DNA of 17,730 nucleotides from a virus, in UHGV virus genome UHGV-1681856; one strand, written 5' to 3'. The notes beneath the pieces are model-generated. The model saw nothing but the letters and a program-made list of their open reading frames with translations. It was not told the origin of the DNA and did not search any database. Of the stretch, positions 15,261 to 17,713 are shown one piece after another. The position numbers and the translations under genes were made by a program. The first letter of the stretch is position 1, and every line of letters starts with the position of its first letter.

Positions 15261-15320
15261 GTGCCGAAAATTGTCAGCTTGTGCCGTTTTTTTACGGGGT
15301 GAACTGACATTTTTTGTCAC
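15261..15320. repeat. 60-bp palindromic repeat, copy 1 (59/60 identical to copy 2)
   Basis: GTGCCGAAAATTGTCAGCTTGTGCCGTTTTTTTACGGGGTGAACTGACATTTTTTGTCAC. Internal dyad TGTCAG...CTGACA around CCGT-TTTTTT-ACGG, followed by T6. Confidence 0.8.
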
Positions 15321-15343
15321 TATTGTTTACGCACCAATATAAA
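15314..15343 (+). promoter_or_regulatory. Candidate promoter overlapping the 3' end of repeat copy 1
   Basis: -35-like TTGTCA (15314..15319), 18-bp spacer, -10-like TATAAA (15338..15343). Would drive the acidic-protein gene at 15437. Confidence 0.25.
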
Positions 15344-15436
15344 TCAATAACTTACACTTTGGCACATGCTTTGCTAGATACTAGGCAAGAGGAACGAAAG
15401 TTCCGGTTCTTAAACTAGATTGAAAGGAAATTTGAA

Positions 15437-15739
15437 ATGGAGAACTTTACAGAAGAAGAGAGCGATAGTGCGGCTTTCAGAGAAATAGAGGAGAAGCTTG
15501 AAATACTTATTAATGAAGGCAAAACCATTGATTATGAAGAGGAGATGAAACTCAAAGAATTGCAAGTGATTGAACTGAGGGGAGATTTGGAGGATATAAG
15601 CATGGAAGCAATACACCATGCTTATATTCAGAATGATGTGAGATATCTGAAAGCGTACGGTAAGGAGAGATACATCGCCAGATGCCGTATCGCCCTTGAC
15701 GCTGCCGAGAGATGCTTACAAGAACTGGAGAATGAATGA
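15437..15739 (+). CDS. Small highly acidic protein (100 aa; about 27 Asp+Glu versus 13 Lys+Arg), unknown function
   Basis: ORF with a good initiation region (AAAGGAAATTTGAAATGG). Predicted helical. Sits in the accessory cassette bounded by terminators. Confidence 0.5.
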   Translation: MENFTEEESDSAAFREIEEKLEILINEGKTIDYEEEMKLKELQVIELRGDLEDISMEAIHHAYIQNDVRYLKAYGKERYIARCRIALDAAERCLQELENE

Positions 15740-15831
15740 TGAAAGAATGGAAACACGCAATCACATTATGCATCCTGATGTTTGGCTTGCCGGTCGCTGC
15801 TGAACTGATACGAATCTACTTTATTAAATAA
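15736..15831 (+). CDS. Putative 31-aa hydrophobic micro-protein (MMKEWKHAITLCILMFGLPVAAELIRIYFIK)
   Basis: ATG overlaps the stop of the acidic-protein ORF (ATGA), with GGAG 5 nt upstream. Hydrophobic core compatible with a single membrane helix. Below the ORF-track size cutoff, so found by hand. Confidence 0.3.
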   Translation: MMKEWKHAITLCILMFGLPVAAELIRIYFIK

Positions 15832-15840
15832 AGTACGGGA

Positions 15841-15863
15841 AGCAGGTTCTTCCTGCTATTTTA
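15841..15863 (+). terminator. Weak terminator-like hairpin
   Basis: Stem AGCAGG / CCTGCT with loop TTCTT, followed by ATTTTA. Confidence 0.3.
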
Positions 15864-16006
15864 ATCAACTTTAAAAGGAAATTTGAAATGGTACCGTATG
15901 GGTGAAGATGAACAAGAAAAGGAGTGAGAACTAATTAAGAAAATACAGAAAGTTTTATAAGTTACTATTTATAAATTTACCATTTAACAAATTAAAGGAT
16001 TTAAAA

Positions 16007-17137
16007 ATGAAAAAACAAATTATCGCATTAATGTTGACCATTCCCGCAATCGCAATGGCGGATGGCAAAAGCTCTGTACGTGCCGGCAATTACTCAAAAT
16101 CCGCAGGCGTGGCGTCAGTGGCAATCGGAATGAAGGCAAGCGCGGCAGGAAACCTTGGTACGGCAGTAGGCGCTCATTCAACAGCAGGCGGCGCGATGTC
16201 CTCGGCCTATGGCAGTGCGGCAAATTCAAGCGGCGAATCATCAACAGCGGTTGGTAAAGGCACACTGTCTAGCGGCAAGGCGTCCGCAGCTTTTGGTGCA
16301 CATGCAACATCGGCAGGTGCGTCATCCCTTGCGGCTGGGCTTCACGCAAAATCAGTAGGCGGCCAGTCAACTGCCATCGGCCAAGCAACGCGCGCTACAG
16401 CTGAGAAATCAACCGCAATCGGCAGCGGGGCGCAGGCAACAGAGAAGGCTGCCACTGCACTGGGATTGAATGCAAAAGCCAATCACGCAGGCAGCGTGGC
16501 CATCGGGTACGGCTCGAAAACTCAAGTAGCCGTCGGCACGAAGAATGCGAAAATCGGCAATCTGAATATTGGAGATTTTGCCGGGTACGCACCACAATCA
16601 ACTGTGAGTGTTGGCGATAAAGACGCGGAGCGCACAATTACAAATGTGGCTGCAGGGCGCGTGTCTAAAGACAGTACGGACGCCATCAACGGAAGTCAGT
16701 TATTTGCGCTGGGCGAAAAAGTGTCTGATAACTCTCGCGGAATTGAGAAACAGAACGCAGAAATCGACAGTTTGAAGCGTTCAAAAGCGAATAAGCGCGA
16801 AATGCGGGCAGGAGTTGCGGGAGCTATTGCGATGTCAAATCTGATGCAGCCGCACGCCGCAGGTCAGACGGCAATCGCTGCAAGTGTTGGCTCATTCAGA
16901 AACGAAGCTGCTGCCGCCATCGGGCTGTCTCGCATCTCGAAGAGTGGAAAGTGGGGCGTAAAAGCGGGCGCGTTTGTTGATACCCGCAAAAACTGGGGTG
17001 CCGGTGTTGGCGTTGCATACTTCATTGGTGGTAAGCCTGAGGTGATTAATCAGCCGGTAATTGTTCGCGAAGTCGTTCGTGAAGTTGTGGTTCGCGAAGT
17101 AGCAGAGGCGCCAAAAGGGAAGAAAATTCGTCAGTAA
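16007..17137 (+). CDS. YadA-like trimeric autotransporter adhesin (376 aa precursor)
   Basis: Sec signal peptide MKKQIIALMLTIPAIAMA. Many SxAxG head repeats (SVAIG, STAVG, SAAFG, STAIG). HIM/neck motif TNVAAGRVSKDSTDAINGSQL. Charged coiled-coil segment, then a C-terminal four-strand anchor (AGVAGAIAMSNL...WGAGVGVAYFI). Confidence 0.85.
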   Translation: MKKQIIALMLTIPAIAMADGKSSVRAGNYSKSAGVASVAIGMKASAAGNLGTAVGAHSTAGGAMSSAYGSAANSSGESSTAVGKGTLSSGKASAAFGAHATSAGASSLAAGLHAKSVGGQSTAIGQATRATAEKSTAIGSGAQATEKAATALGLNAKANHAGSVAIGYGSKTQVAVGTKNAKIGNLNIGDFAGYAPQSTVSVGDKDAERTITNVAAGRVSKDSTDAINGSQLFALGEKVSDNSRGIEKQNAEIDSLKRSKANKREMRAGVAGAIAMSNLMQPHAAGQTAIAASVGSFRNEAAAAIGLSRISKSGKWGVKAGAFVDTRKNWGAGVGVAYFIGGKPEVINQPVIVREVVREVVVREVAEAPKGKKIRQ

Positions 17138-17144
17138 GTAGAAC

Positions 17145-17168
17145 GGGCGGCGCGATGCCGCCTTCTTT
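17145..17168 (+). terminator. Intrinsic terminator downstream of the adhesin gene
   Basis: Stem GGCGGC / GCCGCC with loop GCGAT, followed by TTCTTT. Confidence 0.55.
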
Positions 17169-17186
17169 AAATTAAAGGATTGCCAA

Positions 17187-17648
17187 ATGATTGACAAGAT
17201 AAAGACATGGTTTGACGCGGTGGATGATGGACGGGAGATTGGGAATGATGAAATTTCCGTGCAGGTCGGGTGCTTAATTGAGGAGATTTCCGAATTTATG
17301 GAATCAATAGCGCGCGGCGCGCCGGTTGTTGCAACTTTGAAAAGAAGGGCTGACGAGTTCAAGCAAAAAGATGTTTCATGTGTTAAGACAATGGAGATGA
17401 TACGGGAGAGTGAAAAGAGGAGTGTTGATACTCTCGATGCGCTCGCGGATGTTATTGTAACGTGCGTCGGCGTAGCAAGTCGAATGGGATTTGATATAGA
17501 AGGAGCATTGAATGAAGTGAATGAAAGCAACTTCAGCAAGTTTGAAAACGGAAAGCCTGTTTTTGATAAAAATGGGAAAGTGACAAAAGGCAAGGATTAC
17601 TTTAAGCCAAGTCTAAAAGATTTTATAAAGAAAGAGAGTAAAAAATGA
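17187..17648 (+). CDS. MazG-like (all-alpha) nucleotide pyrophosphohydrolase (153 aa)
   Basis: Acidic metal-binding-like motifs (LIEEISEFMES, DALADVIV) and C-terminal NESNFSKFENGK...KGKDYFKP resemble phage MazG-like NTP pyrophosphatases as I recall them. Initiation region AAATTAAAGGATT shared with the adhesin gene. Confidence 0.5.
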   Translation: MIDKIKTWFDAVDDGREIGNDEISVQVGCLIEEISEFMESIARGAPVVATLKRRADEFKQKDVSCVKTMEMIRESEKRSVDTLDALADVIVTCVGVASRMGFDIEGALNEVNESNFSKFENGKPVFDKNGKVTKGKDYFKPSLKDFIKKESKK

Positions 17649-17653
17649 ATTAT

Positions 17654-17713
17654 GTGCCGAAAAATGTCAGCTTGTGCCGTTTTTTTACGGGGTGAACTGA
17701 CATTTTTTGTCAC
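17654..17713. repeat. 60-bp palindromic repeat, copy 2
   Basis: GTGCCGAAAAATGTCAGCTTGTGCCGTTTTTTTACGGGGTGAACTGACATTTTTTGTCAC. Starts 6 nt after the MazG-like stop; one mismatch versus copy 1; similarity decays downstream. Confidence 0.8.

Follow-up and report, generated by a model that had tools for sequence, protein, structure and literature searches.

Transcription of pilA1 in Kingella kingae depends on sigma-54 and PilS/PilR. The pilE gene of commensal Neisseria is transcribed by RpoN, and a site for integration host factor (IHF) separates its promoter from the site of Npa, a PilR-like activator (PMC6528607). Enhancer sequences have been published for Pseudomonas aeruginosa PilR (TGTGACACTTTTTGACA) and, as a putative element, for the sigma-N promoters of N. 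meningitidis class II pilE (TCTGACAAAAAATGTCA) (PMC6755734). Among phages, the promoter-early stem-loops (PeSLs) of T4-type phages are composite cassettes of terminator and promoter through which modules are shuffled (PMC2839356, PMC4122927), and Pseudomonas phage YuA is described, in the citation of Ceyssens 2008 given in PMC10914365, as having sigma-54-type promoters. Here we describe a repeated element of the viral genome UHGV-1681856, a metagenomic contig of 17,730 bp (ENA ERZ773076 NODE_595) that was analysed whole and is referred to below as the window. The element was noticed as a 60-bp palindromic repeat in two near-identical copies. We consider it likely that this repeat is the upstream activator sequence (UAS) of a composite cassette of ~180 bp (~230 bp with its terminator), built as an enhancer-dependent sigma-54 promoter. 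All functional statements made here are inferred from sequence.

The end of the window falls within the second copy of the repeat. Two contigs of the same phage, hereafter phage A, both extend beyond this end: L001, of 35.9 kb, from another sample (window position = L001 position + 7186), and L002, of 17.1 kb, from a further sample. Within the window, positions 15260-15333 and 17653-17726 align without gaps at 93% identity over 74 nt; the 60-nt cores differ at a single base (T15272 versus A17665), and TGTGCCG occurs as one pair per copy, 20 bp apart (15260 and 15280, 17653 and 17673), these last two points as described by the first-pass annotation. A 38-nt core is found exactly twice in the window, with 0 occurrences expected in shuffles. 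The long imperfect dyad followed by T6, also noted there, is present, and the + strand RNA folds at -23 to -29 kcal/mol. Other parts of that description need revision. The full repeat measures ~180 nt and is present three times (L001 8074-8253, 10467-10646 and 14613-14792; 86-97% identity), in L001 and L002 alike; what was taken for a pair bracketing a 2.3-kb cargo is instead two of three copies of a predicted promoter cassette, each heading an operon. Every copy consists of the 60-mer, then ~120 nt near-identical in all copies, then AAAGGAAATTTGAAATG, which in each case supplies the next + strand gene with its Shine-Dalgarno sequence and start codon. The -35-like hexamer assigned to copy 1 alone, TTGTCA, occurs in every copy, and the weaker similarity reported for the flanks is actually a cluster of six single-nucleotide polymorphisms (SNPs) peculiar to copy 2 of the window and L002. 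These substitutions lie at window positions 17714-17729 and are not in L001 (10528-10543), where copy 2 agrees with the other two copies; they could stem either from gene conversion between cassettes or from repeats collapsed during assembly.

Two diverged relatives of phage A were found by protein look-ups in ENA and Logan assemblies. Phage B (contigs L089, L090 and L091) has 94% identity to phage A in TerL and 93% in the muramidase, and phage C (L221, a 35.3-kb contig) encodes a YadA-like protein with 96% identity and carries three cassettes at the same three genomic positions as in phage A, 73-78% identical to those of A. The cassettes share an ordered set of predicted regulatory elements (Table 1). 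Two 15-bp dyads of the general form TGmCr-W5-TGTCA are found in each cassette, reading TGCCGAAAAWTGTCA and TGACATTTTTTGTCA in phage A; the distal one is present in 8/8 copies from A, B and C as TGmCG-W5-TGTCA, and TGACA-N5-TGTCA occurs in the cassettes only, with 0.03 expected per genome. Downstream, the exact string TGGCAC-N5-TTGCW is found in every copy, on the coding strand and 62 nt 5' of the ATG; in 20 kb of L001 it occurs in the cassettes only, and the chance of the exact 11-base core within a 180-nt cassette is ~1e-4. An exact IHF core WATCAANNNNTTR lies between sites and promoter, at -44 to -32 in 8/8 copies of the three phages, and in the same 20 kb of L001 is again found in the three cassettes only. 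These positions are relative to a predicted transcript start (+1) assigned as 12 nt past the -12 C, which puts the ATG at +52 and the 60-mer at approximately -126 to -66. The ATG is at +51 to +52 in the cassettes of A and C, and the site centres are at -117 and -74 in A and B and at -127 and -86 in C, with ~4 helical turns between the two sites. An 8-mer forming one arm of the putative activator site, AATGTCAG, has five extra occurrences within late genes (window 334, 1084, 6082 and 7250 on the + strand, 11819 on the - strand) versus ~0.8 expected, a surplus which may be due to chance or codon bias.

Comparison of the three phages, using an alignment of seven copies and a segment table, separates the parts of the cassette that are held constant from those that are not. 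The specified bases of the sigma-54 core are invariant in B and C (11/11), while 1-4 of the 5 N bases differ: this spacer reads ATGCT in A, GTGCT in B, GCGCT in C3 and GAGGC in C1 and C2, with 2-4 of its 5 bases changed in phage C. The IHF core is similarly retained in B and C, with substitutions confined to N positions. Phage C keeps both 15-bp sites, as TGACGAAAATTGTCA twice or as TGCCGAAATTTGTCA, in the form of direct repeats of GTGACGAAAATTGTCAG, and the palindrome is gone. The stretch between the sites, with the second TGTGCCG and the hairpin's GC core, is not conserved in C, and 12-13 extra nt separate the proximal site from the IHF core. The degenerate middle position is not conserved in phage C, and in other viral cassettes, described below, the same offset holds a third site. 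In the A/B comparison, homology runs out at about +6 of the predicted transcript. That phage C keeps the sites, the IHF core and the -24/-12 element and loses the hairpin argues for selection on protein-recognition elements rather than on RNA structure. The earlier suggestion that the repeat is under selection and regulatory in nature is supported, and of the functions proposed for the 60-mer a regulator-binding site is the best reading; the palindrome and the central TGTGCCG emphasised at that time are not conserved in phage C, and the relevant promoter would be of sigma-54 type, not one based on the -35-like hexamer.

The same design recurs in other viruses. An IMG/VR scan for one TGACR-W5-TGTCA site 30-60 nt 5' of TGGCAC-N5-TTGC matched 25 contigs (L229-L253; 18 non-redundant, GC 33-63%), and a control scan with scrambled -24/-12 blocks matched 0. 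TGAC-N7-GTCA sites within 160 nt upstream average 2.0 per locus versus 0.06 in the background of the same loci; at least two are present in 12/18 loci and three in 6/18, at stereotyped offsets of ~98/78/56 or ~88/67 nt from TGGCAC. These features were not required by the search pattern, and neither were G after TGGCAC (13/18), W after TTGC (18/18) and the IHF cores found in 3/18 loci versus 0.07 expected. The consensus of 46 sites is aGTGACA-AAAAT-TGTCACt. The gap from the proximal site to TGGCAC is in most cases either ~41 or ~52 nt, with phage A at 40 and phage C at 52. The insertion in phage C thus appears to place the array in the other recurrent register, one helical turn away, as would be expected if the activator must face the polymerase. 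The genes downstream of these viral cassettes are small ORFans together with, judging by inspection, an apparently ArdC-like and an apparently reverse-transcriptase-like one; none of the products starts like a pilin, and no protein family shared among the cassette-bearing viral loci was found. Two of the loci have further features: L243 carries two sigma-54 cores with an IHF core positioned as in phage A, and in L233 a stretch of ~220 nt holds four exact sigma-54-type cores, of which three or more read TGGCACACTTNTTGCA. A looser pattern of IHF plus sigma-54 elements in metagenomes and IMG/VR returned more than 120 unrelated loci with no similarity beyond the pattern. Close relatives of phage A itself were not seen in the collections: the pattern of two TGTGCCG plus the sigma-54 core had no hit in IMG/VR, searches of the same database anchored on the TerL and MazG-like proteins reached 45% at best and so gave no close relative, the isolated-phage collection held no DNA relatives of phage A or of three other cassette-bearing contigs, and prophages in Alysiella and Vitreoscilla genomes and one P2-like relative carried no cassette.

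The predicted activator sites resemble published enhancers of pilin regulators. The proximal site of phage A matches the reverse complement of the putative UAS of N. meningitidis class II pilE at 15/17 positions and the P. aeruginosa PilR enhancer at 13/17, and the distal site matches the Neisseria pilE putative UAS at 13/17. The remaining sites of phages A, B and C score 12-14/17 against the meningococcal core, the sites of the three phages score 11-13/17 against the P. aeruginosa enhancer, and both are matched at 14/17 positions by the consensus of 46 phage sites. Among random 17-mers of the window, at least 13/17 is reached with a frequency of ~2e-4, and the few that do probably come from the cassettes themselves. 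Sites of P2 Ogr type (TGT-N12-ACA), NifA type (TGT-N10-ACA) and GlrR type (TGTC-N10-GACA) were rejected by inspection, for mismatched spacing. The cassette has in common with pilin promoters the -24/-12 core, an IHF site between enhancer and promoter, and activator sites made of TGACA/TGTCA half-sites around an A/T tract (PMC6755734, PMC6528607). Unlike them, it is in a phage, is present in three copies, heads genes unrelated to the pilus and has more regular palindromes; its putative proximal site is also ~40-52 nt from TGGCAC, in contrast to ~112 nt reported for the meningococcal pilE UAS. Phage YuA resembles phage A in its proposed use of the host sigma-54 holoenzyme for some transcription units. 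Its genome (NC_010116; L258/L259) has three annotated fragments of 'high activity, -24/-12 consensus', which are in late genes and contain no exact TGGCAC-N5-TTGC core and no palindromic enhancer. YuA was the only phage sigma-54 precedent that we found in the literature, which yielded nothing on PilR- or enhancer-dependent phage promoters; phage operons depending on a host sigma-54 activator have rarely been reported.

These features suggest a mechanism in which each cassette would begin at its 5' end with an intrinsic terminator or, in the phage A lineage, with a hairpin and U-run made of the activator sites themselves, followed in order by two phased 15-bp sites, an IHF bend site, the sigma-54 -24/-12 element, a leader of ~50 nt and a strong Shine-Dalgarno sequence with ATG. 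The host sigma-54 holoenzyme would be held in a closed complex on TGGCAC-N5-TTGCT until a host AAA+ enhancer-binding protein occupies the two sites and an IHF-induced bend brings the bound activator to the holoenzyme, opening the promoter. The upstream terminator or hairpin would insulate each operon and so make its expression dependent on the activator. As a side effect, three near-identical direct repeats of 180 bp would constitute portable homology for gene exchange.

The activator is likely to be supplied by the host. GAFTGA, ESELFG and Walker-type activator motifs are absent from the retrieved DNA of phages A, B and C and of the other viral loci, from which we infer a host activator, and PilR/Npa-type pilin regulators are the leading candidate on the basis of the site similarities above. 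An oral Neisseriaceae-like bacterium with functional RpoN is the likely host. The source samples appear to be human-microbiome metagenome assemblies (cohorts ZHAN15 and BRIT16), the nearest named muramidases are from Alysiella and Vitreoscilla, and relatives of TerL are found in Pasteurellaceae and Neisseriaceae; together with GC content these clues fit a Neisseriaceae-like host weakly. Uptake sequences were looked for in the phage and none were found. Several considerations weigh against an enhancer-dependent sigma-54 promoter wired to a pilin regulator. The negative result for an activator gene spans the retrieved DNA, with ~8 kb of the 35.9-kb L001 outside it, a part bordered by structural genes. 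The nearest named homologues are divided between Neisseriaceae and Pasteurellaceae, and functional RpoN is missing from some of these taxa. Enhancers are usually quoted as lying 80-150 bp upstream, and the proximal site, at -74, is somewhat nearer the promoter than this; the IHF core, for its part, is only 5 nt from TGGCAC. The link to PilR consists of two short published sequences, one of them a 'putative' UAS from a species with a defunct system. Finally, the leader is as conserved as the promoter, at 86% between phages A and C, which the model leaves unexplained. By itself the leader fold does not reach significance (z = -0.9), its stem is broken in copy A3 and phage B carries a different leader. 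A lambda nut- or put-like antitermination signal, comprising the GGAAC-GAAA-GTTCC hairpin and a boxA-like GGTTCTTAAAC, was considered for this leader and rejected on the same grounds of fold, A3 stem and phage B sequence. An Rfam scan of the early arm gave at best 20-22 bits versus gathering scores of 41-90 (E >= 0.8).

The hairpin is the basis of the main competing explanation for the 60-mer, namely that it is an intrinsic, possibly bidirectional terminator or insulator only, conserved as an RNA structure and with no role in activation. In A and B the two sites are inverted around a GCCG-T7-CGGG core and pair over more than 20 bp ahead of U6 (z = -4.2 to -5.95; -23 to -29 kcal/mol), the fold is better on the + than on the - strand owing to G-U pairs, the 3'-arm variants of A1, A3 and B (GGTGAA, GGCAAAA and GATGAA) still pair with U or G, and copies 2 and 3 of phage A directly follow stop codons with no other terminator. 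We nevertheless consider a purely terminating element improbable, because phage C retains the 15-bp sites without a significant hairpin (z = -1.7, -1.7 and +0.07) or the middle GC core, because A1 and B already have a canonical terminator ~8-10 nt upstream that would render a second redundant, and because termination explains neither the fixed distance to an exact sigma-54 core nor recurrence of the arrangement in 25 viral contigs. The terminator role proposed earlier is plausible for the A/B lineage, with its strong hairpin and U6, and does not extend to phage C, from which the hairpin is absent. A separate canonical terminator (CCGCC...GGGCGGTCTTTTTTT), homologous to the one after RusA in phage A, is found before all three C cassettes and the B cassette, and in phage A before cassette 1 only; it is conceivable, at somewhat less than even chances, that the phage A hairpin took over the insulation performed by separate terminators in C, as a lineage-specific second function. 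Still less probable than termination alone, in our view, is that TTGTCA-N18-TATAAAT is a real sigma-70 promoter, with the palindromes as operators for a phage repressor or activator and the sigma-54 string as part of the leader. A simple sigma-70 consensus scan called no + strand promoter in the cassette, TTGTCA is TTGTAA in phage B, the 12-13-nt insertion in phage C leaves no -35-like hexamer at 16-18 nt, and no repressor-like gene was seen in the sequenced parts. The hexamers of phage A (TTGTCA at 15314-15319, TATAAA at 15338-15343) do have an 18-nt spacing, with the six copy-2 SNPs lying in the putative spacer, and tandem palindromes are typical of operators. The TATAAAT is invariant across all copies, but can equally well be accounted for as the A/T-rich segment at the 5' side of the IHF site, and a sigma-70 promoter would leave unexplained both the invariant 11-base sigma-54 core (~1e-4 by chance) and the end of homology at the predicted +1. 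There is next to no likelihood that the element is a generic host repeat of REP or MITE type or an assembly artefact, for all that it is palindromic, ~60 bp long and multicopy and that contigs end inside it: a scan of 185,579 species genomes for two half-sites plus the sigma-54 core gave four scattered hits in unrelated phyla, judged to be chance, exact cassette pieces gave 0 hits in IMG/VR, L001 and L002, assembled independently from different samples, both have the three copies, and diverged versions occupy the same genomic positions in phage C.

The idea that the repeats are a dedicated recombination boundary, acting mainly as linkers for the swapping of moron cassettes in the manner of PeSLs, draws on several signs of exchange at the cassette. 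Phages A and C cease to be homologous 2-12 nt past the ATG in two of the three cassettes, 1 and 3, where unrelated first genes follow (the 100-aa acidic gene in A versus 61-aa and 133-aa genes in C, and a 203-aa versus a 54-aa gene). In phage B a first gene is missing at this place, homology to A being lost from about +6 and resuming at Sak. In the phage B sample, a contig that ends after the RusA terminator overlaps by 55 nt another that runs through the cassette into Sak, which connects the RusA-terminator flank with the Sak operon by way of the cassette. A methylase gene (74% nt identity; L001 13598-14599, L221 11195-12226) precedes cassette 3 in A and lies between the YadA-like and MazG-like genes in C, and so adjoins different cassettes in the two phages. 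An orphan copy of the cassette 3' end at 15861-15906 is likely to be a recombination scar, and gene conversion is suggested by the six clustered SNPs that copy 2 has in some samples and lacks in others. There is a precedent in PeSLs (PMC2839356, PMC4122927), which are likewise repeated intergenic cassettes of ~100-200 bp that combine a stem-loop or terminator with a promoter, Shine-Dalgarno sequence and ATG before variable ORFans, with indel or replacement breakpoints between close relatives falling inside the cassette, between promoter and ATG. They differ in that the phage A cassette is of sigma-54 type with enhancer and IHF site, has three copies in a ~36-kb myovirus and has no sequence homology to PeSLs; a sigma-70-like early promoter of the PeSL kind was not found, the sigma-70-like hexamers not being conserved in relatives of phage A. 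Mini-circles were not demonstrated for the phage A cassette, and no circles or deletion variants were directly observed. Conservation tracks the promoter elements, with N positions free and specified positions fixed, rather than showing uniform homology, and exchange would be an expected by-product of 180-bp direct repeats in a phage with Sak and YqaJ. We therefore think it unlikely that recombination is the primary role of the repeats. If the repeats are instead parts of sigma-54 promoter cassettes, the portable homology that they provide would lead to gene swaps at the cassette 3' edge and to assembly breaks there; the window, L089 and L090 all end inside the cassette and L091 starts just upstream of it.

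The YadA-like gene has boundaries of its own. It is also found in unrelated phages of ~62 kb (L222-L228; 78% nt and 86-89% aa identity), which have a T7-like RNA polymerase, DNA Pol A and 36-37% GC and no cassette, and the homology is restricted to the gene and ~40 nt upstream. This suggests that the gene is mobile cargo situated inside the repeat interval. The earlier proposal that cassettes are swapped at the repeats thus holds in part, as gene content between relatives does change at cassette 3' edges, and fails for the adhesin, whose boundaries (15968-17137) are not at the repeats and which occurs in the 62-kb phages without them. Morons of lambdoid phages are genes with their own promoter and terminator inserted between core genes. 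The YadA-like gene is comparable as a single-gene block with a downstream hairpin and 78% nt identity to genes of unrelated phages, but the 60-mer repeats are not the boundaries of this moron, and appear instead to be part of the phage's own operon promoters.

Phage A is a ~36-kb myovirus (GC 45.8%) with an Sf6-type small terminase and E217/XM1-like structural genes, the latter all on the - strand. The non-structural arm is on the + strand and converges on the lysis genes. Its first unit is RusA alone, followed by a terminator, and one cassette is found at the head of each of the three operons that follow: cassette 1 precedes the acidic 100-aa protein, a micro-ORF, the YadA-like gene and the MazG-like gene; cassette 2 precedes five small ORFs, NinG, HNH, an 89-aa ORF and a DNA methylase; and cassette 3 precedes a 203-aa ORF, Sak, YqaJ, an HI_1489-like gene and a 140-aa ORF. 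The earlier impression that all genes between the two copies are accessory gains no support from this layout, in which the other two cassettes head operons with NinG, HNH, methylase, Sak and YqaJ. For the acidic protein a DNA-mimic or anti-restriction role is a guess. The micro-ORF (30 codons, hydrophobic; 15739-15831) overlaps the acidic-gene stop codon, and a terminator-like hairpin is found 3' of it (15836-15855). The divergent TerS/RusA intergenic region (14638-14813) contains an inverted repeat, ATGCTAA-N17-TTAGCAT, whose arms, but not its loop, are the same in phage B; this repeat might serve the early/late switch as an operator or a hairpin. At L001 19017-19515, between an Rz-like lysis gene and the tail genes, a 12-nt unit, GCTGGYTCTGGY, is tandemly repeated at least 20 times; the array varies between samples and adjoins a scaffold gap.

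Table 1. Features of the cassette region of phage A, with window coordinates; functional assignments are predictions
Feature	Position	Strand	Remarks
RusA-like resolvase	14814..15188	+	Pfam RusA E = 3.5e-19; sole gene of first + unit, upstream of cassette 1
Intrinsic terminator after RusA	15224..15252	+	stem GCCGCCCACTAGTTGGGCGG then T-run; from terminator scan and fold
Copy 1 of the 60-mer	15260..15320	no strand	read as putative enhancer (UAS) of cassette 1; also long hairpin + T6
Distal activator site (putative) TGCCGAAAATTGTCA	15262..15276	no strand	centre ~-117; starts 98 nt before TGGCAC
Degenerate middle position TGCCGTTTTTTTACG	15282..15296	no strand	78 nt before TGGCAC; GC core of hairpin
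Proximal activator site (putative) TGACATTTTTTGTCA	15305..15319	no strand	centre ~-74; starts 55 nt before TGGCAC
IHF core AATCAATAACTTA (consensus WATCAANNNNTTR)	15342..15354	+	-44..-32; 5 nt 5' of TGGCAC
Sigma-54 -24/-12 promoter (predicted) TGGCACATGCTTTGCT	15360..15375	+	exact TGGCAC-N5-TTGCW; element reads TGGCAC-N5-TTGCT
Predicted transcript start and 51-nt leader	15386..15436	+	start ~15386, 12 nt 3' of -12 C; stem-loop GGAAC-GAAA-GTTCC at 15391-15404
Shine-Dalgarno AAAGGAAA and ATG	15423..15439	+	3' edge of cassette, first gene of operon 1
Acidic 100-aa protein	15437..15739	+	very acidic; heads operon 1, matched by neither Pfam nor PHROG
Orphan copy of cassette 3' end (AAAGGAAATTTGAAATG; TTAATCAACTTTAAAAGGAAATTTGAAATG) and 5-codon ORF (MVPYG*)	15861..15906	+	between micro-ORF and YadA-like gene
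YadA-like trimeric autotransporter	16007..17137	+	Pfam YadA stalk, anchor and head domains; homology block 15968-17137
MazG-like gene	17187..17648	+	last gene of operon 1; weak Pfam hits MazG-like, PRA-PH; 86% nt identity to phage C
Copy 2	17653..17730	no strand	putative enhancer end of cassette 2, sites 17655-17669 and 17698-17712; remainder in L001 and L002

Accounts of phage transcription usually turn on sigma-70 promoters, phage sigma factors, phage RNA polymerases and antiterminators, and host sigma-54 is almost absent from them. A programme gated by a host signal-transduction protein would represent a different logic of host dependence, and the presence of the same design in 25 other contigs suggests that phage A is not a one-off. 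We put forward, tentatively and as a considerably less secure proposal than the promoter assignment itself, that these cassettes belong to a widespread and undescribed class of phage promoters wired to the host PilS-PilR (Nps-Npa)/sigma-54 pilin-sensing circuit, a class in which GTGACA-W5-TGTCAC arrays in fixed helical registers would lie 5' of TGGCACG-N4-TTGCW and drive early or accessory operons. If this is true, such phages would express whole operons only where the type IV pilus regulator is active, and their gene expression may be coupled to the state of a pilus receptor; all three non-structural operons of phage A would depend on the pilus-regulator circuit. The motif could then be used to find such promoters and to predict permissive hosts and physiological states. 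Repeated regulatory modules would also be seen here becoming points of exchange for accessory genes, such as the YadA-like adhesin that phage A has in common with unrelated phages.

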